From: Candidatus Eiseniibacteriota bacterium
GTDB lineage: Bacteria > Eisenbacteria > RBG-16-71-46
Assembly (NCBI GenBank): GCA_963717505.1
Contig: OY970342.1
Span: forward strand, 704,001 to 768,000
Direction of reading: 5' to 3'
DNA length: 64,000 nucleotides
In this document: positions 33,214-48,429 of the stretch, in pieces
How positions within the stretch are numbered: the first letter of the stretch is position 1
How the letters are laid out: every line of letters starts with the position of its first letter
Notes under the pieces: model-generated
What the model saw: only the letters and a program-made list of their open reading frames with translations
Told to the model about the DNA's origin: nothing
Databases searched by the model: none
Made by a program: the position numbers and the translations under genes

Positions 33214-36192
33214 CTAGTCCGTGAGCGTGAGATCGATCCGGACTTTTCCGTTCTCGACCTTGCCCGGCTCGGGGTCCATCAGATAGATGCGGGCGTCGTC
33301 GACGCCCTGGGTCACCAACTGATCCTTGATCGTGAGGCCGCGCGCGTTGGCCAGCGACAGGAGATCGGCTTCGTCCACCGGCTGGAGCGCGGTCAGCGTG
33401 TCCTGGATCGCCGTATAGAGCCGCGGACTGTCGATCACCAGCTTCTTCGAGCCTTCCTTGAACTGAGGATGCTTGGGGTCGAGCTCGCCGGCCGGCATCT
33501 CGAACTTCTTCTTGAACTCGGCGAGCCCCTGCTTTTCGAAGCGCTCGGCGTAAAGGTCTTCGAGCAGGCGTGGAGAGTAGCCGACGCCCCCGCCGTACTT
33601 CTTGGGATCGGAGGCCAGCTTCTCCCCGGCCAGCGCCTCGAACTTCGCGTGCCGGATCGCGACTGCGTCCGCCTCGGCGTCCGAGCGTCCGCGCACTTCG
33701 AGGCTGAGCTGCGGGCGCTTGCCGAGGGCTTCCGCCAGCTTGGTCATCGACTCCTTCTGGTCTTCCGGCATCGCGCTGGCGCCGACCGGGAAGTCCACAT
33801 GACTCAGCTCGTCGGCGTCGCCCCCGCCGAACAGGCTGCCGAGCAGCGCGAACGGCGCGGTCGCGACCTTCTTGAGGAGACTCATGATGAAGTCCCAGAT
33901 CACCTTCCAGATGCCGAACTTGGGATCATCGAGGTCGCCCTCGACCGGCATGTCCAGGTTGATCTGACCGTTGCCATCTTTGAGGATTGCGAGCGCGAGT
34001 CCTACCGGCAGCTTGGTGGCCTCGGGACTCTCGACCTTCTCGCCCAGCTCGAATTGGTCGAGCAGGATCTTGTTCTCGCCGACCAGGTGCCGGCCCTCGA
34101 GCCGGTAGTTGAGATCGAGCGTCATCTTGCCCTTGTCGACTTCGCGGCCGAGGAACTGGCCGGTGTAGGGCGTCAGCACCGGCATGTTGAAACCGCTGAA
34201 GTCGACATCGAGATCGACGAACGTCCGCTCCGCGAGCGGATTGATCTCTCCGCGCACGCTGGCAGTACCGCTCGGCTGCATCTTGCCGTCGAGGACCACA
34301 CTGGCGCGCGACGCCGAGTCCGACGACAGCCCCTTCGCCGACCCCGCGATCTGCTCGATCCGGGCCGCGAAGGGCAGGATGAGCGAGAAATCGGCAAAGT
34401 CAGCCGAACCCTCGACGACGTCGATCGTGCCGATGCGGACCGGGATCGCCGAGGACTCGGTTGCGCTCTTGCGCATGGCGGCCAGCGCCTCGGACGGCTT
34501 CTGCGCGGCGACCACCGTGTCGGCCTGCAGCCCGAAGATCTCCTGGATGTTGGTGGTGCGATCCTTGTGGATCAGGATCTTGGCGTAGGGCTGGCTAAGT
34601 CGAACGCCGCCGACTCGAACGCGAGTCGGCGCGTAGTCGATCCCGCTCGCCGTCACCGACTTCCACGCCAGGAACCGGTCGTCGACGATGCGATCGCGCG
34701 CCAGGAACCCGCGGGATTCGACGACACCCTGGTAGCGCAGGTCCGGCTGATCCTTGCGCGCACCCTCCCGGAACTGGACTTTGCCTTTGGCGCCCAGCGT
34801 GCCGCTGACCAGTTGCAGCTTGGCAACCGGGTTCACGTAAGGCTGGAAGATCTTGAGCGGCAGATCCGACAGCATGACCTGGAGGTCGGCTGACGGCGGT
34901 TGCGCCACGGCTTTCCCCGTGGCTTCGAACTTCCCGGTTCCGGCGATGGTCACGTCGGTGGCCAGGTCGATGGAGGCACCCGGCTCGGAGCTGAGGTTGC
35001 GAAGCGTGGCGTTGGCCGGCGCCACCATGACCGCGAACGGCGGCGACACCGTACGATCCTCGAACGCGACTCCGAGATCGCGAACCGAGAATTCCTTCAG
35101 CTCGACCGTCCACGGCGCCACCGGCGCCACGCTGTCCGGGGGCGCGGCGGGCGCCGTTCCACTCGCAGGCGCCGCGGCCGACGCGGGCTTGGTCATCAGC
35201 GCCTGCCAATTGAGCGTCGTATCGGGCTCGAGCCAGGCGACCACGCGCGTTCCCGCCAGCAGCACGCGTTCGATGTTCACCGTCTGCTCCGGGTAGCGGA
35301 CCTGAATTCCGGTGACCCGCAGCGAATCGATGTGCAGAAGATCCGGCTCCTTCCCCGGGGCGCGCATCGTGAAACCGGTGAGGCTGAATCGGGCGTCGTT
35401 GATCCGCGACACGATGCTGTCCCCGCGCACGTCGGTTGCGTAGTCGATCCTGCAATCGGTGATGCCGTCCGTGACCTCGAAACCAAAGCGGCGCTTCGCG
35501 ATCTCCCAGAACTTCCGCAGCCCCGAATCGCTGACCTCGAGCACACCGGCCGAGTGCAAGGGATCGAAGGTCAGGTCCCCGTTCCACTGCCAGCGGCCGC
35601 CGCTGGGATCGGTGGCGACGATGCCGTAGCGACCTTCCTTGTCCGGGATCGTGGTGAAGTTCCTGAGCATGAGATCGATCGGCTCGAGCGTGCCGTCCTC
35701 GGGCTCGGCCGGCATCAGGTTGGTGACGCGCACGGACCCACGCGCGATCTCGAATTTGCCAAGGATCAGGCGCGGTGGCTTCGAGGGCGGCTGGCTGGCC
35801 GCGTAGTCGATCATGTCCGCAAAGTTGGGCCGGCCATCGGGCATCAGCCGAATGTGGGTCCTCGGACCCTCCAGCCGGAATTCCCGGAACGTCAGCGCCC
35901 AGCGCACCAGGCTCGAGAGTTGAAAGTCCGCGTGCATGCGATCGAACGCAACGAACGACGTGCCGTCGGCGTCCTCGAGGTCGAAACCCTCGAGCGTGAG
36001 CGACAGGAACAGCGGGTTGACGCGAACGCGGTCGAGCCGGACCTCGCGCTTGAGGGTCTCGCGAACCCCCTTGATGATCTGGCCGCGCACGATCCCGGGG
36101 AGCGCCAGGAATCCGAACAGCGAATAGACGACCAAGACCGCGAGCGGAATCCACACGCGCTTGCGGCGCAGCTGTTCGAGAACCGGGTTCAC
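33214..36192 (-). CDS. DUF748 (AsmA-like) domain protein
   Basis: N-terminal TM anchor; VRVNPLFLSL, LPVGLALAILKD.NG.I.LD.PVEGDLDDPKF, OmpA-like end LANARG; start at GTG 36192. Confidence 0.9.
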   Translation of the reverse strand: MNPVLEQLRRKRVWIPLAVLVVYSLFGFLALPGIVRGQIIKGVRETLKREVRLDRVRVNPLFLSLTLEGFDLEDADGTSFVAFDRMHADFQLSSLVRWALTFREFRLEGPRTHIRLMPDGRPNFADMIDYAASQPPSKPPRLILGKFEIARGSVRVTNLMPAEPEDGTLEPIDLMLRNFTTIPDKEGRYGIVATDPSGGRWQWNGDLTFDPLHSAGVLEVSDSGLRKFWEIAKRRFGFEVTDGITDCRIDYATDVRGDSIVSRINDARFSLTGFTMRAPGKEPDLLHIDSLRVTGIQVRYPEQTVNIERVLLAGTRVVAWLEPDTTLNWQALMTKPASAAAPASGTAPAAPPDSVAPVAPWTVELKEFSVRDLGVAFEDRTVSPPFAVMVAPANATLRNLSSEPGASIDLATDVTIAGTGKFEATGKAVAQPPSADLQVMLSDLPLKIFQPYVNPVAKLQLVSGTLGAKGKVQFREGARKDQPDLRYQGVVESRGFLARDRIVDDRFLAWKSVTASGIDYAPTRVRVGGVRLSQPYAKILIHKDRTTNIQEIFGLQADTVVAAQKPSEALAAMRKSATESSAIPVRIGTIDVVEGSADFADFSLILPFAARIEQIAGSAKGLSSDSASRASVVLDGKMQPSGTASVRGEINPLAERTFVDLDVDFSGFNMPVLTPYTGQFLGREVDKGKMTLDLNYRLEGRHLVGENKILLDQFELGEKVESPEATKLPVGLALAILKDGNGQINLDMPVEGDLDDPKFGIWKVIWDFIMSLLKKVATAPFALLGSLFGGGDADELSHVDFPVGASAMPEDQKESMTKLAEALGKRPQLSLEVRGRSDAEADAVAIRHAKFEALAGEKLASDPKKYGGGVGYSPRLLEDLYAERFEKQGLAEFKKKFEMPAGELDPKHPQFKEGSKKLVIDSPRLYTAIQDTLTALQPVDEADLLSLANARGLTIKDQLVTQGVDDARIYLMDPEPGKVENGKVRIDLTLTD

Positions 36193-36197
36193 GACTC

Positions 36198-39100
36198 TTA
36201 CTCCGCGACGATCTGAACCAATGCCGGCGGGGAGATCCCTTGTTGTTGGGCCGCCTTCGCCACCTTGACCGGGACGATTTTGGCGAATGCCTCGTGAAAG
36301 CGCCAGCGCTTCCACTCGCCCTCGAGCCGGACGGTCACATGCTCGCCCTCGATCCGAATCGGGAGCCCGCGGCGGAGGGCCTCGGCGGCGACGAACGGGC
36401 CCAGGTCCCGCGTCCACTCCTCGGGGGTGATCGCCGACAGGACATTGCCCGCGTATTGCGCGGGATCGAGCCGAACCAGGGGATCGAACACGAACACGCG
36501 GCCGGCCGCCGCCCCGGACATGAAGAACTTTCCGGAATAGGGCCGCGGCTTGAGCGAAAGCTCGCCGCGGCCGTCGGGCTTGCGCAGGCCCATGACCACG
36601 TGCAGCGAGTTGTCGCCGCCCGCCATCAGGTACTCGAACGCGTACTCGTTGGGCGTGCCGAAGTGGATCGACTTGAAGCCGGGCGCCGGCGTGCGCCCGT
36701 CCTCGAGCAGGACCTTGTTCTGCCCGGCCACTGCGAACCGCGAGCCCGAATCCCAGACGTTGATCGTTCCGCCGTGCGCGGCGTACATGCAGGTGTTGAG
36801 CGAGTCCTGGAGCACGAACAGGTAGCCGGAATCGGCCTTGAAGCCGAGATGGCTCTGACCCTGGCCGAACACATAGACGCGCGCGCCTTCGAGCAGGGCG
36901 CCGATGAAGTCGCCGAATTCGCGGCCGTACAGTTCGAGCGTGACCCCGCGCGCGGCCGTGCCGTCGGGCTGTGCCAGGTTGGTGCCGACGTAGCGCGGAC
37001 CGCCGATGAATCCGTACCCGACGATATTGCGCCACCCCAGTCGCACGGCCTCCGACGTGATGCGCGACGCCGAGTCGAGCCAGAACGACTCGCTGCGAAA
37101 GCCGGCATAGTCGACGACCAGGACATCGCGCAGCGGATCGCGGGGCGCGGCCAGGTCGTCTCGGGTTTCGAGCGTGAGCCGCGCCCACCGGCCGGTCGGC
37201 GACGGCGCCGCCAACGCTTCGTGAATCGGCGCGACCTGATCGAGCAGCCGCACGACGCCGCCTTCAGGCGAGCGGTCGCCGGCACGACCGCCGTCGGTCA
37301 GGTACTCCATGCTCGACAGCGACTTGCCACCGAGGTCGGTGAGCGCGAGCCGCGTGCGGAGTGTGGCGAGCACGCGCAGGACCAACGCCGTGCTCGTGTC
37401 GGAACCTTGCGCCCACTCCGGCAGCGCGTGCTCGACCAGATAGCGGTAGTCCTCGAAATTCAGCGTGCGCTGGCGATCGAGGGTACCGATCACCAGATCG
37501 CGCGCAGCACCGGTCAGCTCCTGATCGGGCCCCCAGGGCCGCGACGCCGGTGCCGCACCCGATTCGACCGCACGCACCTCGGCGGTCATACCCTCGAGCC
37601 AGCGCAGGACCAGGCTCTTCCACTCCGCCGACGCGCGGCCGACCGCCTGCTCGAGCACCACTTCGAAATCCACCTTGGCGCCGCCGCGCTCGACCTCGAT
37701 CGGCTCCCCGAACCGGTTGGTCAGGTCCATGCCCTGGGATCCCGGAGCCGTGAACGCCTCGAACACGCCGCCGAAGTCGCGTCGCTTGGGCGTGCCGCCG
37801 GGACGCATGTTGAAGCGCAGGTCGTGGCCACCGTCGTGGAGCACACCCTGGGCGTGCAGCGTGCGCAGCATGGCGTCGGCGATCTTGGCTTCGCTGCCGT
37901 TGGCCACGGCGTGGACTCCGCCCGGCGTGGTGTCGCGACTGACCACGATCTCGTGCGGGCGCAGGAACTTGATGTCCATGTTCTCGCGGAAGCCGACGAC
38001 CCGGAGCGGCCCGGACGCGGTCCAGCGCCGGCGCGACTCGACGATCGTGAACTTGTACGGGCCGGTCGGCGTCAGCTGGACGTAGTTGGTCATCAGCAGC
38101 GTGAACTTGCGCCGTCGTTCATCGTCCATGTTGGCCAGATCGAAGCCGGTGATCGGCGAAATGATCTGGCTCGCCTCTTCGGTCGACAGACCCAGCACGC
38201 GCCGCGTGAAGTCCACGAGATAGGCGGCGTACTCGGTGTCGGTCAGCGCCTTGCGCTCGTACACCGAGTCGCCGTGGTAGTCGGCGTGGCCCTCGCCCAT
38301 CGTCGGGTCGGCGTGGACGTAGCCGAACTCCATGAGGAACGGGGCGGTCGAGTCGACGGCCACCTGCTCGCCGTTGTGCATGAGCAGGACGTTGTACGCC
38401 TTGAACGGATGGGCGCCCGCGGGATTCCCGCGGCCTTCGGCGTCGATCGCCGGCGAGTTGGTCGGATAGCGGTGGTGCATACCCCAGACGTGCGCGTGGA
38501 GCGCCGGCGTGCGGGACGTTCGCCCTTTGAGCGTGACCGGCAGGCCGCCGGGCGCACCCGGGTATGCGATCCAGAAGCGGTCGAAGTCGAAGTACTCGGG
38601 AATCGTGTGCGTCCAGCCCGAGATCTTGATCGCGCCGAGATCCTCGCCCATCGAGACCACGAAGCCCCGGCGTTTGGCGGCGTACTTGCCCGCCGGTGGA
38701 TGCGATCCCGCCGGCGCGTGGGTCCGGTAGTAGCGCGAGTCCAGCAGGTGCGCGAGTGCGGTGAAGTACTCCTCGCGCACGTCAGCGACGAACCGATCCA
38801 GGCGCTCGAGATTGGCGTCCCCGGGGGGCGCCGGCCGGTCCGGATGGTCGAGCGCATGGGCGAGCGCGAAGTCGGAGAGATCCCCGTAGAGCGTCCGACG
38901 CTGGAGCCAGTGCTCGCTCGCGATCAATTGCCGGCCGTAACGCTGGAGCACCTCGAGCCGAAGCTCGACGAACAGTAGATGGAAGTCGCCCGGGTTCTCG
39001 CGCAGCTCGGCCAGACGCCAGCCGTCGTCCTTCTGGTACTGCGGCCGCACCGGCACCTTGAATTCCGGCAGACGCGCCAGGACCTGATCGAGCGGCAGCT

Positions 39101-42100
39101 CGGCGCCTGCGGCGTCGAAGAACCGGCAACCGGCGAAATGCCCGACCATCTGGCGGATGGTGTCCGCGCGATCGGGTCCGATGGTGTTGACGATCACGCA
39201 GGTCTTCTCGCGCACCGGTTCCGGCGCGAAGCCTGCGAAATCGATGCCGCCGCCGCGGTTGTTGCCGCCATTGAAGCTGAGCCGCGCCGACTCCCAGATC
39301 GCGTGCACGGTCACCGGCTCGGACACCGCCAGCGACCCGACGCGGCACGAATCCCGCTCGACCGTGACCGGGTCCACGGCCGGAGCCGGGCGCGACATCC
39401 GGGCCGGCACGCCGTCGGCGGCCGCGGCGTCGAGCGCACGCAGCGAACCTGCCGGTCCCGCGTGCTTCGGCATCACCAGCAGGTCGGTGCGGCCGCGCAG
39501 TTTGCGAATGTCGTCCAGCAGGCGGTCGGCGTGAACCACCCGGCCCTGCGCGTCGAGCGCGCCGCTCTCACGATTGAACGCGTCGAGCAGCACCGCCAGC
39601 TTGACCAGGTTCATCACCGTCCAATTGCGGAACCGCCGGCGCATCAGATCGCGGTCGTTCTGGATCGTCAGCTCGGGCTTGGTCGTGATGCCGCCGCGCG
39701 GGCAGTCGAGGTGACAATTGCCGCACTGATTGCAGCCGAAGGCCACGGCCTTGCCGATGCTGGCTTCGACCAGCGCGTCGGCGCCGGCGATCAGCACCTT
39801 GATCATGTCCAGCTCGCCGCGCAGCCCGCCCGACGCCAGGAGCCGCGTGCCACCGCCCGCGCCGAACGGAACGCCATTCAGGTCGCGGATCGACTTCAGC
39901 TCGCCGCTGCCGGCCAGGTCGACCTTCTCGCCGACCAGGGCATGATGCGTGTGCAGGATGGTGCGGAAGATGTCGGGCCACCCGACGTGTGAGCTGTCGG
40001 CGTGGTAGTTGCCGGAACCGCCGAGCCCGGAGTCGACCAGCAGGTAGTCGACCACGAAGTTGGACCACATGCCGGCGGCGACGTAGCGCGTGTAGTTGGA
40101 GCCGGTGATCTTGATGCCGCAATGGTTGTGGTAGAGCAGCCACAACCAGACTTCGGCCGGCATGTCCTCGATCGAATAGATGTCGTGCTTGGGATCGGGC
40201 GAGAGCGCGTCGGTGCCGATCGGAATGTTGCGCGCCTTGCTCACCGTGCTGGTGACTTTGGCTCCGGACAGACGCCCGCCCTTGCCCGGCTTGGCGCCCT
40301 GATTGATCTTGATCTCGACGTCGCGCACGCGGCGCAAGTCGGCGGCGTGCATGCCGAAGTGTCCGCTCGCCGCCTGCATGCTCTCCCAGGCCATCGCTTC
40401 GGGCGCGAGCCGAATCGGTCCGCCTTCGCCCGACGAGGTCATGGTCAGTCCGGTGTTGCCCTCGATGCGCGCGATCAGGAAATCCTCGGACGCCGCCCCC
40501 AGCGAAATGCTGGCGTGACACACCGGGCCGTGCCAGATGGGCTCTCGGAAGCCGAAGCCGGAGAGCACCAGGCCGCCGCGCGGCTCGCGCCGCAGCGTGA
40601 CCAACCCGTCCTTCGAGGCGCGCGCGACCGTGACCCCGTGCCCGCCGTGCCCGCGCGCCGAAAGTTCCGTCGAGCGCTCGGCGCCCTCGACATCGCGGGC
40701 GATCATCCATAGCGATTCGCCGCCGTTCAGCACGTTTTCGAGCGCATGGCCCGCCGCGATCTGGACTTCAAAACCTCCGGTGCGATCGGCGGTGAAACTC
40801 AGCAGAGCCGGACCGTCGGCGCGGCCCCGCAACTCGACCGTGGCGCCGGAGGCCACGGCTCCCGGCCGCTGGAATCCACGCGGCACCGCCATCGACACGT
40901 AATCGAGCAGCTTGGGATCGCGCGCCAGACGCGCCAGCGACCACTCGAGCGATTCGCGGGACAGCTTGATGCCGATCCCGTCGAGCGACATCGCGCCCAT
41001 GTCGCTGTCGATCAGGAAGTCGCCGGCCTCGGGCATCTGGCCGGCGGCCATGCGGTAGATGACCTCGAGGAAGTCCGCGCTCAGATTGCGATTCGTGTTC
41101 TCCAAATGGAAGTTGGCGTTGTCGTGGGCCAGGATCTTCGCGGCGGCGACCAGCGGCAGATCCGGGCGGCGCTCGCCGAGTAACGACGAGACTTTGAACC
41201 GCTCTCGCATGGCACTCGGCACCGGCTCGGCGGCGATGCGTGCCGCGTTCAACCCGGCGTTCAGGCCTCCGAACTCGGGCGTCGCCAGGGCGTCGACTTC
41301 GCGAATCCAGTCCTCGGTCATGGTGATCGCCATGGTGTTGCCGGAGGTCTTCTGGATGTCGTCGATCCCCATGCACGACAGGAAGTCGAGGATGCTGTGT
41401 TGCCAGCAAGTCAGCGTGTTAACCGCCAGCTCGCGCAGCTCGGGCAGACCGACCCCGCGCAAGGCGGTGCGCGCCACTTCGAGATTCGCGCCGTGGTGAA
41501 CCTCGATCAGCTCGGGCAGGAGCGCGATCTCGGCGACGTGGGTCATGGCCCCGCCGTTGGCGCCAAGCAGGACCGCCTCGTACACCGTGGCCGCCGAAGC
41601 CTGGGTGTCGGTATCGCCACCGGCCGATACCAGCTGGACGCGCGCCCTGAGAAACCGGGCCTTGAGGAACGCGTCGATGCGCGGGATCAGCCGATACGAC
41701 TTCTCGCGCCCCGAGTGAATGTGCAGCATGGCCACACCGTCCAGGCGCGCCGTGGTCTCGAGCGCCGGCCAGAATTCGGGATTCGCCGCGTCGTAACGCA
41801 TGAAGACCGACACCAGGAGTCCGGCATTCCGCTCGATCAGGGCGGCGACGTGGCGGGCGACGTCCTTGCTCCACGCGATCTCGACGATGCGCGACGCGGT
41901 CACCCATTCGCGCAGGGTTGCCGCCGCCTCCCCCGAGCCCGAGCTCAGTGCGTCCACGTGTCGCGGCTCGAGGCGAGGCATGACGTGCGTGGCATTCGGG
42001 CGCAGGGCTGCCGCGTGCTCCACGCAGCGGTCCGCCTCGATCACGACCAGCGAGCGTGTCTGCAGATCCGCCGCCGGGTTCGCGGCGGCGATCGCCTCGA

Positions 42101-42719
42101 GATAACCGCGCTCGAGCGAGATGTCGACCTTGAACGGCAGCGGTCCGACGATCATCGGCATGTCCAGACGAATCGCACGAACCGGAATGCTCGTCCGACC
42201 CTTGGCCGTGCGGAACAGGACCGCCGGATGCCGACGGGCGATGTCCCACGCGGTCGAGAATTCCTCGCGTAGACCGTCGTTCGCGGGGTGGGTGATCGCC
42301 GCGTGCGAGAAGTACGAGCGCCAGAAGCCATGGTGCCAGGCGGCGCCAATCGTCAGCGGCTCGTGACGGTGGCGTTCCTTGAGCACCTTGTCGAGATCGA
42401 ACGCGGTGATCTCGAGCTGCGGGATCTCGCGCGAGACCCGGGAGAAGTGCGAAAGGAAGAGCCGGCCGCGCCGGCCGCGCCCCAGACGCCAGAACGAGGC
42501 TTCGTCGACCCCGGCTCGCTCGAGCAGGAACGACAGCATGCGCCGCCCGCGATCGCGATCGCGCACGGCCGCGCTGTCAGGATCGACCACCAGCGTGAGC
42601 AGGTCCTCCCACATCGCGATCTGCCGGTGGAACGAACCCGGACGATCCGCCGGATCGGTCGACGGTGCCGGCCCGTGCGACGGTGCTCCGGGCGCGGGGC
42701 GTTCGAGGGTCGCGCTCAT
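36198..42719 (-). CDS. gltB: Glutamate synthase-like polyprotein, 2173 aa, with rearranged domain order (degenerate barrel, FMN, GATase-II, GXGXG)
   Basis: FMN domain (SSGEGG, QAASGHFG, EIKINQGAKPGKGG, SPDPKHDIYSIED, ASGGLR, GRTDLL); GATase-II (ERDSC, HHRYPTN, AHPF, HNGE, TDTE); C-terminal GXGXG-type region. ATGA overlap with the upstream gene and GGAG RBS. Confidence 0.85.
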   Translation of the reverse strand: MSATLERPAPGAPSHGPAPSTDPADRPGSFHRQIAMWEDLLTLVVDPDSAAVRDRDRGRRMLSFLLERAGVDEASFWRLGRGRRGRLFLSHFSRVSREIPQLEITAFDLDKVLKERHRHEPLTIGAAWHHGFWRSYFSHAAITHPANDGLREEFSTAWDIARRHPAVLFRTAKGRTSIPVRAIRLDMPMIVGPLPFKVDISLERGYLEAIAAANPAADLQTRSLVVIEADRCVEHAAALRPNATHVMPRLEPRHVDALSSGSGEAAATLREWVTASRIVEIAWSKDVARHVAALIERNAGLLVSVFMRYDAANPEFWPALETTARLDGVAMLHIHSGREKSYRLIPRIDAFLKARFLRARVQLVSAGGDTDTQASAATVYEAVLLGANGGAMTHVAEIALLPELIEVHHGANLEVARTALRGVGLPELRELAVNTLTCWQHSILDFLSCMGIDDIQKTSGNTMAITMTEDWIREVDALATPEFGGLNAGLNAARIAAEPVPSAMRERFKVSSLLGERRPDLPLVAAAKILAHDNANFHLENTNRNLSADFLEVIYRMAAGQMPEAGDFLIDSDMGAMSLDGIGIKLSRESLEWSLARLARDPKLLDYVSMAVPRGFQRPGAVASGATVELRGRADGPALLSFTADRTGGFEVQIAAGHALENVLNGGESLWMIARDVEGAERSTELSARGHGGHGVTVARASKDGLVTLRREPRGGLVLSGFGFREPIWHGPVCHASISLGAASEDFLIARIEGNTGLTMTSSGEGGPIRLAPEAMAWESMQAASGHFGMHAADLRRVRDVEIKINQGAKPGKGGRLSGAKVTSTVSKARNIPIGTDALSPDPKHDIYSIEDMPAEVWLWLLYHNHCGIKITGSNYTRYVAAGMWSNFVVDYLLVDSGLGGSGNYHADSSHVGWPDIFRTILHTHHALVGEKVDLAGSGELKSIRDLNGVPFGAGGGTRLLASGGLRGELDMIKVLIAGADALVEASIGKAVAFGCNQCGNCHLDCPRGGITTKPELTIQNDRDLMRRRFRNWTVMNLVKLAVLLDAFNRESGALDAQGRVVHADRLLDDIRKLRGRTDLLVMPKHAGPAGSLRALDAAAADGVPARMSRPAPAVDPVTVERDSCRVGSLAVSEPVTVHAIWESARLSFNGGNNRGGGIDFAGFAPEPVREKTCVIVNTIGPDRADTIRQMVGHFAGCRFFDAAGAELPLDQVLARLPEFKVPVRPQYQKDDGWRLAELRENPGDFHLLFVELRLEVLQRYGRQLIASEHWLQRRTLYGDLSDFALAHALDHPDRPAPPGDANLERLDRFVADVREEYFTALAHLLDSRYYRTHAPAGSHPPAGKYAAKRRGFVVSMGEDLGAIKISGWTHTIPEYFDFDRFWIAYPGAPGGLPVTLKGRTSRTPALHAHVWGMHHRYPTNSPAIDAEGRGNPAGAHPFKAYNVLLMHNGEQVAVDSTAPFLMEFGYVHADPTMGEGHADYHGDSVYERKALTDTEYAAYLVDFTRRVLGLSTEEASQIISPITGFDLANMDDERRRKFTLLMTNYVQLTPTGPYKFTIVESRRRWTASGPLRVVGFRENMDIKFLRPHEIVVSRDTTPGGVHAVANGSEAKIADAMLRTLHAQGVLHDGGHDLRFNMRPGGTPKRRDFGGVFEAFTAPGSQGMDLTNRFGEPIEVERGGAKVDFEVVLEQAVGRASAEWKSLVLRWLEGMTAEVRAVESGAAPASRPWGPDQELTGAARDLVIGTLDRQRTLNFEDYRYLVEHALPEWAQGSDTSTALVLRVLATLRTRLALTDLGGKSLSSMEYLTDGGRAGDRSPEGGVVRLLDQVAPIHEALAAPSPTGRWARLTLETRDDLAAPRDPLRDVLVVDYAGFRSESFWLDSASRITSEAVRLGWRNIVGYGFIGGPRYVGTNLAQPDGTAARGVTLELYGREFGDFIGALLEGARVYVFGQGQSHLGFKADSGYLFVLQDSLNTCMYAAHGGTINVWDSGSRFAVAGQNKVLLEDGRTPAPGFKSIHFGTPNEYAFEYLMAGGDNSLHVVMGLRKPDGRGELSLKPRPYSGKFFMSGAAAGRVFVFDPLVRLDPAQYAGNVLSAITPEEWTRDLGPFVAAEALRRGLPIRIEGEHVTVRLEGEWKRWRFHEAFAKIVPVKVAKAAQQQGISPPALVQIVAE

Positions 42720-45406
42720 CGCCGCTCCGCCGTCTCGAACGAATCGAGCGCCACGAACCAGGCCGGTGTCGGCGCTTCCATGACGCGCAGCGTCCGCCCG
42801 CCGTTCTGGTGGTTGTTCGGGCAAACCTCGACGCACGACCCGCAGCCAATGCACCGTTCCTGAGCGGTCTGGATCCACCGAGGATCCGCGCCCTCGAACT
42901 CGCGATTGGCGCTGGTGGGACAGACGGCGACACAAGCGCCGCAGTGGATGCAGGTGTCGGCCGGGCCGGCGTCGTTCTCGGAGCGCAAGACCAGGAAGCG
43001 CGGCACCCCCGGGAGTGCTGCCGGACTCCGTTTGATGTAGCCGCCCGGGCGCACGCCCAGGAAGTCGCGCGTGTATCCGGCCGAGCCCCGCACTGCCGCG
43101 ACCACGGCCGCGTGCCGGTTGCGGTCGTACGGACGCACGCGATTCGAAGCTGCTTGCATCTGGTCGTACATCGGCAGATGCGGAATGCCCGCCTGGCAGA
43201 CTTGCTCGCAATTGCCGCAGCGCATGCACAGGTCGAGCAGCGTGCTGCCGGTCGCCGGCACCGCGACGCCGCCGCGCATGGCTTCGCCGATGTGCGTGAG
43301 CATCTGGGGCAGGCGGATCTTCGATTCGTGGAAGATCGGGCAGACTGTGTTGCACTCGCCGCAGTTGACGCAGTGCAGCGCTCGATCCTCGGGCGTCTGG
43401 GCCGGTGATCCGGCCGGTGCGCCCGGGGCGATCGACAACAGCAGTGACTTCCCGCCACCTCCGGCCATCGGCGCCGGCGCGCGGAAGTCGGCGCCAACTA
43501 CCGCGGGTCCGCCACGCCCGCGGGCCGGGCCCGGGAGCACGCTCATTAGTCCGCGCACCGATTTCACCAGCCCGGAGAGCGCGGACTGAGCGTAGATCGC
43601 GCGCAGCAAGGAAACGCCGGGCGAGAAGGTCGATGCGACGACGGCGCCCAACGGCCCTTTGAGGCTCATGTCGACCAGCACGCCGCGATTCACGATGGCG
43701 TGGGGGTCGAGCGATCGCTTCGCCGCGCGGATCAATGCCGCGGGTCCGCGCCCGACCTTGGCGTCGAGCCACGCAGCCTGCCAGCGACCGAGCACGTACG
43801 GCTTGCCCTGGTGATGGTGCATCGCGAGGTCGACCAGCGTCGGCGCGATCATCAGGTCGGCGCCAAATGCACCCGAGCGATGGTCGGTGAGGTAGCCGGC
43901 GATGACCAGCGTCGATCCGTCGTGGACGTAGTAGACCTCGGCGTCCACCTCGCGTCCGACGTTGCGCGCGAGTTGGGCGGCGCGCGGAAGAAAACGCGGC
44001 ACCTCCGCCGCCGGCATCAGGATCTCCGCTGCGAGCAAACCGGGGCCGAGCCGCTTGGTCTGCATCGGCTTGAATCGCTCGGCGGCGAACCGAACGCTCT
44101 CTTCGCCGAGCAGCGCCGGCTGCCCTGGGCATGTCGGCAGCGCCGCGCCGAACGCCCGCGCCGCGGCTTGGTCCATGAAGTCGACGAACAAGTAAGCGCC
44201 GGCGTGATCGAGATCCGGGGCGGTCGCAGGCCCCAGCTCGCGCGGGCCGGTGATCGAGCGCCACGGCAACGACGCATCGCCCGAGAGAGCACCCAGGTGC
44301 TGGCGCCAGGTGCGCGCGTCCTCGTCGGCCCATACCGCACGCACGTGGTGCATGTGCGATCCGCTGAAGAACTTGATGTTGGCCGGTTTCTCCCCGGGCA
44401 ATTGGGTCACCCACTCCGCGGCGGCGAGGGCGTCTTGCTCACGCGCGAACGACAGGAGGAATGGATAGAGCGCCGGCCGCGGCTCGATGCGTACGGTGAG
44501 TCTCAGCAGCACGCCGTAGATGCCTTCACTGCCCGCGAGATCGTCGAGCGTCATGGGCTCGCAGCCTCGGTCGCGGAACCACGCGGCGACTTCGTGCCCG
44601 GCGAGAGTCCGGTGCGAGTGGCCTTCGACTACGTCGAATCGGCCGTCGTCGTGGAAGCGAACCTGGTCGCCCGAAGGCAGCAGCAGGTCAGCAGCGCGAA
44701 CGCTGTCCAGCGCGCGCCCACGCCCGTAGGCGTTGAGCCCGACACCGCCGGTCAGGAACCAGCCCGCGAGCGTGCCCCCCAGGTTCGAGGGATAGACGCC
44801 GAGCGCGAATCCCTGCTCGCCGAGTTGCTTGTGGATCGTGCGCATGCGCGCGCCGGCTCCGATGATGCAAACGCCAGCGGACGGATTGACCTCGATCCCG
44901 TCGAGACGCGACAGGTCGAGCGTCAGTCCTCCGTCGCTCGGCACCGAGCCGCCCATCGCGGTCGAAGCCGCTCCGCGCAGGGTGACCGGCACGCCCAGGT
45001 TGCGCGCCCAGCGCAGTGCCGCCTGGGTCTCGGGCGTGGTCACCGGCTGGAAGATCAGGTCCGGGACCGCGCGCGTCAGGCGTCGCGTGAACAGTCCCCC
45101 GAGGTAGACGTTCTGATCGCGGTCCGCCTCGCCACGCAGGAGTCCGTCAGTGACGATCCGCTCGCGCAGGGTTCTTGCTGATCCCGCGGCATCGGGCAGG
45201 TCGGCCAGGGCCTCGTGCAGCAGGCGCGCCAGCTCGCGCGTGCGCAGCGGCTCGGTGCGGTCGGCGTACGCCCGACCCTCGTCGAAGAAGAAGTTGAGGT
45301 CGGGGATCGAAGCGCGGACGACGGGGGCGCGCTGCTCGGGCGGAAGCGCGGCAAACGCCTCCGGCGACTGCCCTAAATGTCGATCGAGGAACGAGGCTTC
45401 GGACAT
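42716..45406 (-). CDS. FAD-binding (PCMH/VAO-type) oxidoreductase fused to four [4Fe-4S] motifs
   Basis: PDLIFQP, PVTLRGAASTAMGG, GTLAGW, GSEGIYG, KRSLDPHAIVN; CVNCGECNTVCP, CMRCGNCEQVC, CIHCGACVAVCP, CIGCGSCVEVCP. Start uncertain (45406 or 45478). Confidence 0.9.
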   Translation of the reverse strand: MSEASFLDRHLGQSPEAFAALPPEQRAPVVRASIPDLNFFFDEGRAYADRTEPLRTRELARLLHEALADLPDAAGSARTLRERIVTDGLLRGEADRDQNVYLGGLFTRRLTRAVPDLIFQPVTTPETQAALRWARNLGVPVTLRGAASTAMGGSVPSDGGLTLDLSRLDGIEVNPSAGVCIIGAGARMRTIHKQLGEQGFALGVYPSNLGGTLAGWFLTGGVGLNAYGRGRALDSVRAADLLLPSGDQVRFHDDGRFDVVEGHSHRTLAGHEVAAWFRDRGCEPMTLDDLAGSEGIYGVLLRLTVRIEPRPALYPFLLSFAREQDALAAAEWVTQLPGEKPANIKFFSGSHMHHVRAVWADEDARTWRQHLGALSGDASLPWRSITGPRELGPATAPDLDHAGAYLFVDFMDQAAARAFGAALPTCPGQPALLGEESVRFAAERFKPMQTKRLGPGLLAAEILMPAAEVPRFLPRAAQLARNVGREVDAEVYYVHDGSTLVIAGYLTDHRSGAFGADLMIAPTLVDLAMHHHQGKPYVLGRWQAAWLDAKVGRGPAALIRAAKRSLDPHAIVNRGVLVDMSLKGPLGAVVASTFSPGVSLLRAIYAQSALSGLVKSVRGLMSVLPGPARGRGGPAVVGADFRAPAPMAGGGGKSLLLSIAPGAPAGSPAQTPEDRALHCVNCGECNTVCPIFHESKIRLPQMLTHIGEAMRGGVAVPATGSTLLDLCMRCGNCEQVCQAGIPHLPMYDQMQAASNRVRPYDRNRHAAVVAAVRGSAGYTRDFLGVRPGGYIKRSPAALPGVPRFLVLRSENDAGPADTCIHCGACVAVCPTSANREFEGADPRWIQTAQERCIGCGSCVEVCPNNHQNGGRTLRVMEAPTPAWFVALDSFETAERR

Positions 45407-45480
45407 CCCGCGCGTGGGGAATGCGTGCAGCGCTCGGCGGCGTCGGGCCCCGCTCGCGCTGCCCGCGGACCATGGCACTG

Positions 45481-45504
45481 CCCGCGTAAAGCGGGACTAT
45501 AGCA
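45481..45504 (-). promoter_or_regulatory. Putative extended -10 promoter with adjacent short palindrome, upstream of the FAD/GltB-like operon
   Basis: Minus strand reads TGCTATAGT (45504-45496) then CCCGC-TTTAC-GCGGG (45495-45481). Confidence 0.5.
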
Positions 45505-45548
45505 GAGGGTTCGGCAGCCGGTCACGGCGGCCAAGCGAGGACAGCGGC

Positions 45549-47474
45549 TCAGCGCAGCTCGGGCAAGCCCGCGTTCACCGAGCCACGCAGCCGGGTGAAG
45601 AACCGTACGCTCTCGAGCGCCAGGCGGGCCCCATCCAGGGGCAAGACCGGGATGTCCTTCGAGGCAAACGGCGGCGCGAACCCGACCGCGGATTGGGCTG
45701 CCGCCAGCGCGCGATCGTGAAAGCCGTGGCGGGCTTCGTACTGGCTGCGCAGGACCAGGCTCTGGCCGTAGAGAAGATGATGGGTCGCCACGTAGAGGTC
45801 CGCCCTGCCCCGCCACGGCCGCAGCCGAAGCGCGGGGTCCGCACAGGCGACGTAGCCACTGTCTGCGCGGAACTCGACGGCCAGGCCACATGGCGTGGCG
45901 ACAAAGCCGCGCAGCGGGGCCAAGTCGACTTCGCAGGTGGCGAAGATCCCGCGCGTCGGCGCGGCGTGACGAATGATGCCGGCCACCAGGCCGTCGTACG
46001 CCGCCCCCACTCCGGTGCCGCTCCGAGTCGCACGTTCGTGGCCTTCGGCTTCGGTGCGGACCAGCGCCATGAGTTCGGGATCGCGGCGCGCCAGTTCGCG
46101 GACGTACCACGGATGACGCAGCAGCTCGGTGCTGATCACGGTGACGTCAGGGCGTAGCCCTTCGACGATCTGCATGTACAAGGACGGCGAGATGACGTGG
46201 TCCCACAACGACGAGAAGACCACGGATCGCTCGGGCAGCGGCTCGAGCAGATCGCGGACCAGACCCTCGGAGAGCGTCAGGTCGCGTTCGTTGCAGCTTC
46301 GAAAGTGGAGCGCTCCATTGACCACGATCAAGGCGCCGGCCACCGCCAAGGTCACCCGCGCCCCGAACCGTTGGTGCAAGGCCGCCCAGCCCGCGGCGAC
46401 CAGGAGCCCCAACCCCATCAATGCAGGAAGCGCGTAGGGATCGACGTCGCGAATCCCGTACCCAACGAGATAGACCAGGCTGGTAGCCACGATCAGGCAT
46501 GCGAAGACCATCGCGCCGCGATCCCGGCGTGCGAGGAACGTTCCGCCGACGATGGCCACGGCCGCTCCCGCGAACGCGAGATCCCACGGTAGTCGAGAGA
46601 ACGCATACGCGGCTTGCAGCCGGGCATCCTCGGCGCTCGAGAACATCCACAGCTGATACTGCTTGCCGGTGACGTGCGCCATGAGCCGCCCGAAGTCGTG
46701 AGGATCTCCCCAGGACAATCGAGGCTCGGCCGAGGCTCGAAGAAGCAGCCAGACATAGGGCAGCAGACCCACGAGGAGCGCGGGAGCAACCGGCCAGAGA
46801 ATCCGCGCCAGACCCGGTCGCAGTCCGAAGCGAACGAACCACGCCGCCAGGAATGCCGGCGCCAGCACGACAACGGTGAGGTGGTTGGTGAAGGTGAGCC
46901 CGAGAATCAGGCCGAAAAGCATTCCCGACACGATCGTCGGTCGCTCGAGGTCGCGGAGCAGAGCCAGGCCGAGCACCGGCAGCAGGAACAACTGAAACGA
47001 GTACACCTCGAAGCCGTTGGCCTGTTGCCACACGGTCACGCTGGTCGCGATCAGGAGCGACGCGCAGCCGGCGTAGATCGCGCGCATGCTCTCCGACAGG
47101 GTGGAGCGCGAACCCGCGGGTGCTTTTTTGCGCGCGGCCGCCTTGGAATTTGGGCGAGCCCAAGTCGAGCCACCCAAACTCTCGAGAAAACGGTAGGCCA
47201 ACAGGACCAGCAGCGCCGCGCCGAGGGCGACCAGCACCGCGGCCAAGCCGTTCAGCACAACGATCGGCCGGCCGGGGACCACCGCCTGCACCGCATGGGC
47301 GAGAAGGATCAGGGTCGGGTAACCCGTGGGGTGCGCGATGCCCATCGTGCACGCCGCCGCCGCCAGCTCGCCGCGGTCGATGAAGCTGACGCTGCGCGAC
47401 ATCGTGCACAGATACAGCGTCGCGCAGATCGCGAAGACTCCCGCGGCGACCAGCACGCGAGCAGGAAATCGCAC
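45549..47474 (-). CDS. DUF2723 / TMEM260-like GT-C membrane glycosyltransferase
   Basis: D.GEL...GIAHPTGYP, EVYS, NH, SWGDP; many TM helices. Confidence 0.85.
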   Translation of the reverse strand: MRFPARVLVAAGVFAICATLYLCTMSRSVSFIDRGELAAAACTMGIAHPTGYPTLILLAHAVQAVVPGRPIVVLNGLAAVLVALGAALLVLLAYRFLESLGGSTWARPNSKAAARKKAPAGSRSTLSESMRAIYAGCASLLIATSVTVWQQANGFEVYSFQLFLLPVLGLALLRDLERPTIVSGMLFGLILGLTFTNHLTVVVLAPAFLAAWFVRFGLRPGLARILWPVAPALLVGLLPYVWLLLRASAEPRLSWGDPHDFGRLMAHVTGKQYQLWMFSSAEDARLQAAYAFSRLPWDLAFAGAAVAIVGGTFLARRDRGAMVFACLIVATSLVYLVGYGIRDVDPYALPALMGLGLLVAAGWAALHQRFGARVTLAVAGALIVVNGALHFRSCNERDLTLSEGLVRDLLEPLPERSVVFSSLWDHVISPSLYMQIVEGLRPDVTVISTELLRHPWYVRELARRDPELMALVRTEAEGHERATRSGTGVGAAYDGLVAGIIRHAAPTRGIFATCEVDLAPLRGFVATPCGLAVEFRADSGYVACADPALRLRPWRGRADLYVATHHLLYGQSLVLRSQYEARHGFHDRALAAAQSAVGFAPPFASKDIPVLPLDGARLALESVRFFTRLRGSVNAGLPELR

Positions 47475-47483
47475 GCGTCCTCC

Positions 47484-48341
47484 CTAGCGCCCGAGCAGCA
47501 TCCCGGTCACCCGCACGAACGAGAGAACGAATCCCACCACGGTCGTTGCGAGCAACACCAGCGCCAGAACCTGAACCCATAGGCTCTCTCGCCGTTCATG
47601 GCTCAGCGGCATGAACTGGGCGACCACCCATCCTGATGCGAATCCCCCGCCATGAGCCCAGTTGTCGACGCCTCTCATGAAGAAGCCGAACGCGAACAGG
47701 ATCAGCGCCCAGGTCCAGAGTTGGGTGGTCAGCATCTGCGAACCGGTCCGCCGGCCGTAGACGATGAGCGCCGCGAGCAGGCCGAAGATGCTGCCCGAAG
47801 CCCCGACCGAGCTCGATGCCAATACTCCCGGGCCCGTCATGAGATCCCCCGCGATGTTCGACACCAGGAAGCCGAATGCGCCGGCGAGCGAAAAGATGAC
47901 GAAGCCGCGCGCCGGGCCGAACGCTTCGTCGACTTGCGGCCCGAGATTCCGGATCCACATGACGTTGAAGAAGATGTGCAGAATGCCGCCGTGCAGGTAG
48001 ATGGCGGTGAGCAGCGTCCACCACCAGCCGAGCTCCCAGGCGATTCCCCCGGTCATCCCGAGCTGGTAGAGCGCGCGCGAGCCCGGCGAAAGGATCGAGA
48101 ACATCCCCGACGTCTGGAGAATCGCTTCGGGCTGGAGGATCAGGGCCGCGACGTAGAGGACGATGCACGTCATCACGATCAGCGGAACCATGTCGAGCCG
48201 GTTTCCGAACAGCTTCTGGATCGCGGGCGCGTAGCCGTAGAGCCCGGGGCGCCACGCGCCGCAAAACGGGCACTGCTCCTCGCTGACGCTGATCAGCTTC
48301 CCGCAGTTGGGGCAGATCATCGAGCCTTGGGTCTGGCGCAT
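47484..48341 (-). CDS. Rhomboid intramembrane serine protease with N-terminal zinc ribbon
   Basis: CPNC..CPFC; HGGILHIFFN; VGASG; NWAHGGG. Confidence 0.93.
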   Translation of the reverse strand: MRQTQGSMICPNCGKLISVSEEQCPFCGAWRPGLYGYAPAIQKLFGNRLDMVPLIVMTCIVLYVAALILQPEAILQTSGMFSILSPGSRALYQLGMTGGIAWELGWWWTLLTAIYLHGGILHIFFNVMWIRNLGPQVDEAFGPARGFVIFSLAGAFGFLVSNIAGDLMTGPGVLASSSVGASGSIFGLLAALIVYGRRTGSQMLTTQLWTWALILFAFGFFMRGVDNWAHGGGFASGWVVAQFMPLSHERRESLWVQVLALVLLATTVVGFVLSFVRVTGMLLGR

Positions 48342-48429
48342 CGGGGAAAGATACGCCAGGAGGCAGGTGGAGACGATCGGAGCCCCAGGTCTACGTCTAG
48401 CCGACATCCCCGTTAGCCGCGCCTAACGC

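Follow-up and report, generated by a model that had tools for sequence, protein, structure and literature searches.

A giant glutamate synthase-like protein and its iron-sulfur flavoprotein partner in uncultured bacteria

Can a protein that contains the catalytic parts of a glutamate synthase (GltS; also glutamine:2-oxoglutarate aminotransferase, GOGAT) in a noncanonical order, and that is encoded next to a flavoprotein other than GltD, still be an enzyme of glutamate synthesis? The question is raised by a 64,000-nucleotide stretch of a “Candidatus Eiseniibacteriota” genome (contig OY970342.1, positions 704,001 to 768,000), here called the window, in which an open reading frame (ORF) at 36198..42719 on the minus strand encodes a protein of 2173 amino acids plus stop (here, the giant). 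An earlier note, made from the DNA sequence alone, had described this ORF as a domain-permuted glutamate synthase-like protein; absent from it were the gene immediately upstream, at 42716..45478, which encodes a flavoprotein of 920 amino acids (here, the partner), and the lack of a glutamine synthetase (GS) gene in the same genome. On the basis of sequence comparisons and predicted structures, we consider it rather probable that the partner and the giant form an iron-sulfur flavoenzyme of two proteins that belongs to the glutamate synthase type and has an electron input other than GltD. Positions below are those of the window unless a contig or locus is named, residue numbers are those of the giant unless stated otherwise, and all features of the two genes lie on the minus strand.

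The frame of the giant is open from 44414 to 36198 and is longer than the giant itself. The true start codon is the ATG at 42719, for a product of 2173 amino acids, since the 565 codons before it are rich in arginine and overlap with the gene upstream. The GC content at third codon positions (GC3) is 0.81 throughout the giant frame and resembles that of neighboring genes. A homologue search over 5.8 billion proteins listed 120 clusters with 56 to 100% identity, the window's own cluster included, and 116 of these 120 contain proteins of at least 2000 amino acids, in agreement with the single ORF of the earlier note. Their database names are “glutamate synthase-related protein” or “hypothetical.” Every motif tested (the synthase loop, the 4-Cys motif, the Cys nucleophile, HxRYPT, HNGE, and TDTE) is kept in all 120 listed clusters, in the same order where this was checked. 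The family is not confined to the genome in which it was noticed and occurs in 70 species-level metagenome-assembled genomes (MAGs) of several phyla; among its carriers are uncultured Eisenbacteria, Thermoleophilia, Planctomycetota, Latescibacterota, and Krumholzibacteriia from soils and sediments.

A suspicion had been raised that an indel hides a true stop and start at the sequence TGATG (39471-39475), right after GRTDLL (39494-39477). The TGA is out of frame, the ATG that follows is the in-frame codon of Met1083, and the surroundings of Met1083 are conserved internal sequence with the family consensus DLLxMPxH. In a public run, one short-read contig covers 39450-39600 with zero differences and no gap, so that the suspected indel is not seen there, and no indels are listed across the parts of the giant that are covered by short-read contigs from four DNA runs (low-depth contigs, which leave parts of 38500-40500 uncovered). 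None of the public runs listed with this sequence is an RNA run. Separate genes in homologues or reads, which the earlier note had named as the finding that would speak against it, did not turn up; the homologues are single genes. The giant is one intact gene.

The order of its parts is a degenerate GltS-type triosephosphate isomerase (TIM) barrel, an insert, a flavin mononucleotide (FMN) barrel with a 4-Cys motif, a linker, an N-terminal nucleophile (Ntn) glutaminase, a helical domain, and a GXGXG beta-helix. This bears out the reading of the earlier note (barrel, FMN barrel, class-II amidotransferase, GXGXG), by Pfam in the case of the FMN barrel and by fold and relatives for the rest, and the motif positions given there are exact. 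The two halves of the giant were modeled separately as predicted structures. The model of the N-terminal half has a predicted local distance difference test score (pLDDT) of 73.7 and a predicted template modeling score (pTM) of 0.67, with low confidence in some loops of the FMN domain, and that of the C-terminal half has a pLDDT of 77.8 and a pTM of 0.82. In Pfam searches with the whole giant and with four segments, only PF01645 (Glu_synthase), weak Fer4 matches, and a subthreshold GXGXG match were obtained, and a family profile of 35 sequences matched PDB sequences in the GltS FMN domain only.

Barrel 1 (41310..42437; residues ~95-470) was assigned by fold, by BLASTP, and by an Atlas feature search, there being no Pfam match in it. 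Residues ~106-455 form a full TIM barrel in the N-half model, and the fold matches (VIA) include GltS (6s6s_A; Z 19.0) and mandelate oxidase (6a0m; Z 18.6, 252 residues aligned, root-mean-square deviation [rmsd] 3.9); in the Atlas feature search, the ten best named clusters are all PF01645, with a top score of 0.93. Since barrel 1 lacks both the QGAKPG loop and the Fe-S cluster motif that its split-type paralogue (see below) retains, “degenerate barrel” is a fair name for it, despite which long stretches of it are invariant in the family. A comparison of barrels 1 and 2 of the giant with hhalign found no similarity (probability 0.2, from a shallow alignment with an effective number of sequences of 2.3), so that a recent internal duplication is without support. 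The middle region (40536..41309; residues 471-728) is helical and then beta-rich according to the secondary structure of the model; it has no Pfam match and is not assigned to any family. Barrel 2, the GltS FMN/synthase domain (39474..40535; residues 729-1082), is identified by PF01645 (E value of 3e-45, 155 bits against a cut-off of 20.4, residues 731-947), by GltS chains in the PDB (E value of 1e-20), and by BLASTP. It is followed by a variable linker (39348..39473; residues 1083-1124), which is modeled as disordered: pLDDT is below 50 for residues 1-22 of the C-half model, the family consensus consists of “x” throughout, and the length from GRTDL to the Cys nucleophile ranges from 20 to 100 residues (median 27) among the 87 relatives with matches to both patterns.

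The remainder of the giant consists of a class-II (Ntn) glutamine amidotransferase domain (37656..39347; residues 1125-1688) with the motifs NRGGG, HHRYPT, HNGE, and LTDTE; a helical domain (37215..37655; residues 1689-1835, helices at 589-735 of the C-half model), which shows weak matches to generic helical folds and has no assigned family; and a GXGXG-type beta-helix with a C-terminal tail (36201..37214; residues 1836-2173). By Pfam, GXGXG (PF01493) reaches 14.9 bits in the giant (E value of 0.02; cut-off of 32.5), and GATase_2, GATase_6, and GATase_7 give no match up to an E value of 10. The fold is more telling. The seven best Foldseek matches of the C-half model are all glutamate synthase large chains (E values of 2e-6 to 1e-5), and against ferredoxin-dependent GltS (Fd-GltS; 1ofe_A, by VIA) the model gives Z 18.1 and an rmsd of 4.1 over 523 aligned residues, with model residues 25-1063 placed on chain residues 1-1507. 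PurF, GlmS, and GFAT are matched at Z 8-10 (PurF 1ecb_D, Z 9.8, 200 residues aligned, rmsd 4.0; GlmS 1xff_A, Z 9.6), with model residue 25 on chain residue 1 or 2, while unrelated rows remain at Z 7 or below. These alignments imply that the glutaminase fold, the position of its nucleophile, and the C-terminal beta-helix are present in the model and that their relative placement is close to that in GltS. In addition, a search of the C-half against 1.8 billion representatives gave 216 matches, and distant relatives (~30% identity) do match GATase_6 and GXGXG by Pfam (the latter with E values of 1e-9 to 1e-16) and share C-G/R-V, NRG.GG, HxRYPT, HNG, and TDTE with the giant. The GATase and GXGXG assignments are thus confirmed by fold and by distant relatives.

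Several active-site residues can be placed by alignment. In an alignment with Synechocystis Fd-GltS, Q807 and K810 of the loop EIKINQGAKPGKGG (40275..40316; residues 802-815) correspond to Q969 and K972, and R830, downstream of the loop, corresponds to R992; we take K972 and R992 to be the residues that bind 2-oxoglutarate. These three residues of the giant and the motif QGAKPGKGGR occur in 120/120 listed relatives, and a GG..GA sequence resembling a phosphate loop is present in the FMN barrel at the level of a motif. In the 4-Cys motif, C996-x2-C999-x2-C1002-x3-C1006-P (39699..39734), C996, C1002, and C1006 align with the three [3Fe-4S] Cys residues of Bacillus subtilis GltS (7mfm_G), and C999 is a fourth. 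The ferredoxin-type pattern CxxCxxCxxxCP is found in all 120 listed relatives, with weak Fer4 matches. Given the fourth Cys and the ferredoxin-type motif, the cluster of the giant is likely to be [4Fe-4S] instead of [3Fe-4S].

On the glutaminase side, the proposed N-terminal nucleophile is Cys1125 (39345..39347, with 39347 as the first base of its codon). It is residue 25 of the C-half model and, in the structural alignments, coincides with residue 1 of the chains of GltS, PurF, and GlmS. D-[SA]-C-R-V-[GAS] around it, as well as NRGGG, H[HQ]RYPT, HNGE, and TDTE, are each found in 120/120 listed relatives; in the giant, HHRYPTN is at 38477-38457 (residue 1415) and HNGE at 38378-38367 (residue 1448). 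Glutamine is presumably bound by Arg in HxRYPT, by Asn-Gly in HNG, and by Asp in TDTE. As an Ntn Cys requires a free amino group, the internal Cys1125 would need cleavage after residue 1124. Bacterial GltB and B. subtilis PurF shed propeptides by self-cleavage, and in the stand-alone GATase-GXGXG relatives of the giant, 30 to 40 residues precede the CGV motif like a propeptide. We infer a self-cleavage site at Ser1124/Cys1125, which would fit the variable linker predicted to be disordered and the leader peptides of the stand-alone relatives.

The partner is the proposed electron-input subunit. By Pfam, it contains an FAD_binding_4 domain (partner residues 139-275), a weak FAD-oxidase_C match (343-599; E value of 5e-4, below the cut-off), and two 4Fe-4S dicluster domains (700-765 and 841-889), and its four CxxCxxCxxxC motifs comprise 16 Cys residues, none of which varies among 31 sequences. 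The best PDB matches of the family profile are LctD (7qh2_C; E value of 4e-22) and D-lactate dehydrogenase (8jdb; E value of 5e-17); they are confined to the flavin adenine dinucleotide (FAD) domain, and the cap aligns poorly (i-Evalue of 70). The FAD domain thus matches best the D-lactate dehydrogenase/LctD/GlcD branch of the vanillyl-alcohol oxidase (VAO) family, which includes Fe-S-linked dehydrogenases, but the partner differs from LctD and D-lactate dehydrogenase in having two ferredoxin-type dicluster domains and in being tied to a GltS-like protein.

The TGA stop of the partner overlaps the ATG start of the giant in an ATGA (42716..42719), with a GGAG 7 nucleotides upstream, which suggests translational coupling of the two genes. 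Of the 70 genome loci with a giant, 56 extend upstream for more than 600 bases from its estimated start, and in all 56 the partner is upstream of the giant on the same strand: the two genes are adjacent in 49 loci, separated by an insert of 2.3 to 2.4 kb in six, and separated by an insert of 1.4 kb in one. The 2.3- to 2.4-kb insert, found in six Eisenbacteria loci (6 of the 70), is glnN, a gene for type III glutamine synthetase. The 1.4-kb insert, in locus L016, proved to be a gene for an unrelated ClpP-like protease. Moreover, three distant relatives (P0194, P0212, and P0259) combine FAD_binding_4, FAD-oxidase_C, Fer4, Glu_synthase, GATase_6, and GXGXG in one chain, and a fourth (P0262) has the same fused parts in a different order, with GATase-GXGXG first; these mega-fusions are metagenome proteins of 2526 to 3152 amino acids. 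In G027:C195, the frame around the giant is 3124 amino acids long and has room for the partner, which may be either a partner-giant fusion or a stop-free overlap. A complex prediction with residues 725-1090 of the giant (FMN/Fe-S domain) and residues 690-920 of the partner (ferredoxin part) gave a score of 0.22, against a mark of 0.32.

How did such a protein arise? The earlier note had proposed an independent fusion of split-type modules in a new order. The fusion of split-type modules stands, as each part of the giant is homologous to a protein of split operons, but the new order does not. We retrieved 80 metagenome loci with a stand-alone GATase-GXGXG relative and annotated eight. Six of the eight (L085, L086, L094, L111, L116, and L128, from uncultured Thermodesulfobacteriota and similar bacteria) have a gene for Fer4 plus a divergent Glu_synthase barrel (barrel A; ~470 amino acids), then one for Fer4 plus a strong Glu_synthase barrel (barrel B; ~515 amino acids), and then one for GATase_6 plus GXGXG (~880 amino acids); in the other two, an ORF on the opposite strand had been picked, so that they are uninformative for order. 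By BLASTP, barrel 1 of the giant matches barrel A (L085:4750-6162) with an E value of 2e-6 and 24% identity over 369 columns, barrel 2 matches barrel B with an E value of 8e-29, and the C-half matches the split GATase-GXGXG proteins at ~30% identity with E values of 1e-20 to 1e-25. Because the split genes already have the order of the giant and are homologous to it part by part, the giant is, as judged from these comparisons, a collinear fusion of a three-gene split operon (barrel A, barrel B, and GATase-GXGXG) and not a new shuffle of modules.

The split operons differ from the giant in that they encode three proteins, in that both barrels have an N-terminal Fer4 of their own, and in that barrel A keeps its cluster motif. 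They also differ from the giant loci in their neighbors: instead of an FAD_binding_4 protein, FlpD/MvhD-like genes lie beside the operons of L085, L086, and L116, and MTHFR genes beside those of L094, L116, and L128, with DUF5981 (the MTHFR C-terminal domain) in L111. The FlpD/MvhD-like and MTHFR neighbors hint at yet another electron-input arrangement. In L085, glnA is directly upstream of the split operon. In L094, carAB is beside it (L094:10734-15130). The Geobacter sulfurreducens operon GSU1235-1239, which is annotated as GOGAT and assigned to the RpoN regulon (PMC2725144), may be of this split GltS-like kind.

As references for canonical GltS, we used the enzymes of Azospirillum brasilense (1ea0, 2vdc, and 6s6s), B. 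subtilis (7mfm), and Synechocystis (1ofd, 1ofe, and 1llw). In common with GltB/GltD and Fd-GltS, the giant has the FMN/synthase barrel with its substrate loop and an Fe-S motif at the equivalent place, an Ntn glutaminase and a beta-helix that superpose jointly on those of GltS (see above), and a domain before the FMN barrel, where barrel 1 resembles the GltS central domain in position. Unlike GltS, in which the glutaminase is N-terminal, the giant has its glutaminase internally, after the FMN barrel; it has four cluster Cys residues, not three, and carries an additional insert and a helical domain. The canonical order GATase_2, Glu_syn_central, Glu_synthase, GXGXG is not found in it, and PF00310 and PF04898 have no match in the giant or in the window's genome. 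The input subunit differs as well: in place of an adjacent GltD-type subunit (Fer4_20 plus Pyr_redox_2) or a free ferredoxin, the neighbor is a VAO/LctD-type protein with FAD_binding_4, Fer4, and four 4Fe-4S motifs.

Another system for comparison is N-methylglutamate synthase (MgsABC), which is built from GltB1-, GltB3-, and GltB2-like parts, is redox neutral, and is not known to have a dedicated partner carrying FAD and several clusters. No methylamine-pathway genes were found near the module formed by partner and giant, and a reading as an N-methylglutamate-synthase-like enzyme was rejected because of the redox partner and this lack of nearby methylamine genes.

A mechanism can be proposed with the canonical GltS scheme (PMC8097209) as a template. 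In the giant, barrel 1 would stand where GltS has its central domain. The polypeptide would cut itself at Ser1124/Cys1125, and the freed Cys1125 would hydrolyze glutamine. The ammonia would pass to the FMN barrel and add to 2-oxoglutarate held by K810 and R830, and reduced FMN would then reduce the resulting imine to glutamate. The electrons would come from the partner instead of GltD and NADPH and would travel from FAD through the four [4Fe-4S] clusters and the 4-Cys cluster of the giant to FMN. The gene, the order of its domains, the conserved motifs, the link to the partner, and the genomic context are observed here, whereas we infer which reaction is catalyzed, that the giant is cleaved, which cofactors are bound, and which way the electrons flow; glutamate synthase is nevertheless the most likely function in view of the conserved glutaminase and synthase residues, the five probable clusters of the partner arrangement, the glnN and glnA neighbors, and the lack of another GOGAT in most carriers.

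The last point rests on the following surveys. The window's genome consists of one 4.16-Mb contig with an estimated completeness of 86.7%. The earlier note had suggested looking for a canonical gltB elsewhere in it, and beyond the giant no match to PF01645, PF00310, PF01493, or PF04898 was found. We also compared 31 genomes of the family and order to which the window's genome belongs, including the unpublished G020 (GS present, giant absent). The canonical GltB central domain is present in none of these 31, and strong PF01645 matches occur in them only inside giant ORFs, noncarriers having no strong match. Through their loci, we also reached 30 carrier genomes from several phyla, two of which, to judge by identical coordinates, are also among the 31 relatives. 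Of these 30 carriers, 22 have GS, and the canonical GltB central domain is present in 3 and absent from 27; 19 have GS together with the giant as their only GltS-like enzyme.

Several observations weigh against a glutamate synthase. (i) No GS gene was found in the window's genome by PF00120 or by tblastn with type III GlnN (best E value of 0.017), although the genome keeps five other GATase_6 genes and carA. Among the 31 related genomes, 15 have the giant and 17 have a PF00120 match, and GS is missing in 13 of the 15 carriers but present in 15 of the 16 noncarriers. A GOGAT without GS is hard to explain. (ii) A glutamate dehydrogenase is present in the window's genome, so that glutamate can be made without the giant. 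(iii) The same genome has an orphan GltD-like gene (L162:5492-6817; G000:C1:597491-598816) with Fer4_20 and Pyr_redox_2, of 442 amino acids, ~105 kb from the window; it adjoins a class-III aminotransferase gene and is the only Fer4_20 match in the genome. (iv) The giant does not reach the cut-offs of Pfam GATase_2, Glu_syn_central, and GXGXG or that of the NCBIfam gltB equivalog. (v) K813 and R816 stand invariantly where Fd-GltS has E975 and Q978, a replacement that, from the alignment, could mean a different substrate. (vi) The internal Ntn Cys depends on the proposed cleavage. (vii) Two metal-binding His residues are presumably the mark of D-2-hydroxyacid dehydrogenases, and these were not seen in the partner (in a low-confidence alignment).

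Two further features of the window's genome were noted in these searches. A second ELFV-dehydrogenase match (G000:C1:2707903-2708533, minus strand) has two open frames of 192 and 279 amino acids and could belong to a large or broken glutamate dehydrogenase gene. Two overlapping GATase_6 matches, one with an internal TGA (G000:C1:4037021-4037381, minus strand), may indicate a frameshift in an amidotransferase gene.

The strongest competitor of the glutamate synthase reading, though clearly the less probable of the two, is that the pair carries out another chemistry: it would act on a different 2-oxo acid or imine or with a different amide or amine donor, or the glutaminase would stay uncleaved and inactive and free ammonia would be used. 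The invariant K813 and R816 beside the substrate-binding residues and the missing GS in the window's genome and in most carriers of its order fit such a chemistry, as does the score of the giant against the gltB equivalog (PRK11750), 82.3 bits in the FMN region only and far below the cut-off of 1047. On the other hand, K810 and R830, the counterparts of the 2-oxoglutarate-binding residues, are invariant, the glutaminase Cys, the HxRYPT Arg, the HNG Asn-Gly, and the TDTE Asp are kept in all 120 listed relatives, glnN lies inside the operon in six loci, and a redox-neutral reaction of the N-methylglutamate type would need no partner with FAD and 16 cluster Cys residues.

Reverse operation appears improbable. 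Here, glutamate would be oxidized at FMN, the electrons would leave through the clusters and the FAD of the partner to an acceptor, and the ammonia would be passed to the glutaminase site and used there to make glutamine, so that the pair would substitute for GS. Its attraction lies in the near-exclusive pattern among the 31 related genomes (13 with the giant only, 15 with GS only, 2 with both, and 1 with neither; 5 of those with the giant only reach a completeness of 96% or more), in the lack of the canonical GltB central domain from all 31 and of a strong Glu_synthase match from the noncarriers, and in the glutamine-using enzymes that the window's genome keeps without GS. A rough estimate from standard free energies puts the (Gln + 2-oxoglutarate)/(2 Glu) couple near -0.05 V, so that a high-potential acceptor could pull the reaction. 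However, the related genomes are not independent samples, and the pattern may reflect few evolutionary events; cells without GS could import glutamine. The 22 of 30 carriers from other lineages that also have GS rule out that the giant replaces GS everywhere, glnN within the operon of six loci fits a GS-GOGAT pair better, and no case in which an Ntn glutaminase synthesizes an amide is known to us. The absence of GS from carriers may be explained by import of glutamine, by another substrate, or, with the lowest likelihood, by operation in reverse.

Least credible of all, and rejected here, is an assembly artefact in which two or more genes were joined by an indel, for example at 39471-39475, since all that speaks for it, the out-of-frame TGA immediately before the in-frame ATG, is outweighed by the long listed relatives from independent assemblies with their conserved motifs in the same order, the conservation around Met1083, the identical, gap-free short-read contig and the other covered parts without a listed indel, and the uniform GC3.

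Beyond the partner and the giant, no conserved neighbors were found by Pfam among 89 flanking ORFs of 16 loci; the neighbors are lineage specific. In the window, a gene for a DUF748/AsmA-like protein of 979 amino acids (33217-36153, minus strand) begins ~45 nucleotides after the stop of the giant on the same strand; it was not found beside the module in other loci. Upstream of the partner are genes, all on the minus strand, for a TMEM260-like membrane protein (45552-47474), a zinc-ribbon rhomboid (47487-48407), and an FG-GAP repeat protein of 925 amino acids (48476-51250). A rhomboid gene is likewise upstream in 12 of the 70 loci, of which 8 are labeled Eisenbacteria and 4 have another label or none. 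A sigma-70-like site upstream of the partner gene (45496..45525) is a weak lead, with 1 site found and 1.1 expected in shuffled sequences. In three actinobacterial loci (two labeled Actinomycetes and one Thermoleophilia), a protein of ~1220 amino acids is encoded near the module on the opposite strand (L048:15353-19012, L053:15841-19491, and L067:17848-21519, minus strand) and joins Fer2_4, Fer4_20, and Pyr_redox_2 (GltD-like) with Fer4 and a TPP-binding domain. Full-text literature searches found no account of the architecture of the giant; supplements such as MAG annotation tables could mention the gene.

To our knowledge, only three electron inputs to glutamate synthase have been characterized: NADPH via GltD, NADH in the fused eukaryotic form, and ferredoxin. 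If the glutamate synthase reading is true, a VAO-type flavoprotein with four clusters would be the fourth, and nitrogen assimilation would be linked to a further organic or redox donor. The internal Ntn Cys, in turn, predicts a “propeptide” of 1,124 residues that would be retained as a working subunit. As the giant is the only GltS-like enzyme in most carriers, it bears on the nitrogen handling of abundant uncultured groups. In carriers without GS, the pair might be the only enzymatic link between glutamate and glutamine and run as a redox-driven, ATP-independent, glutamine-forming enzyme, which we regard as unlikely; at the least, it may be the center of a GS-free nitrogen economy in these organisms.

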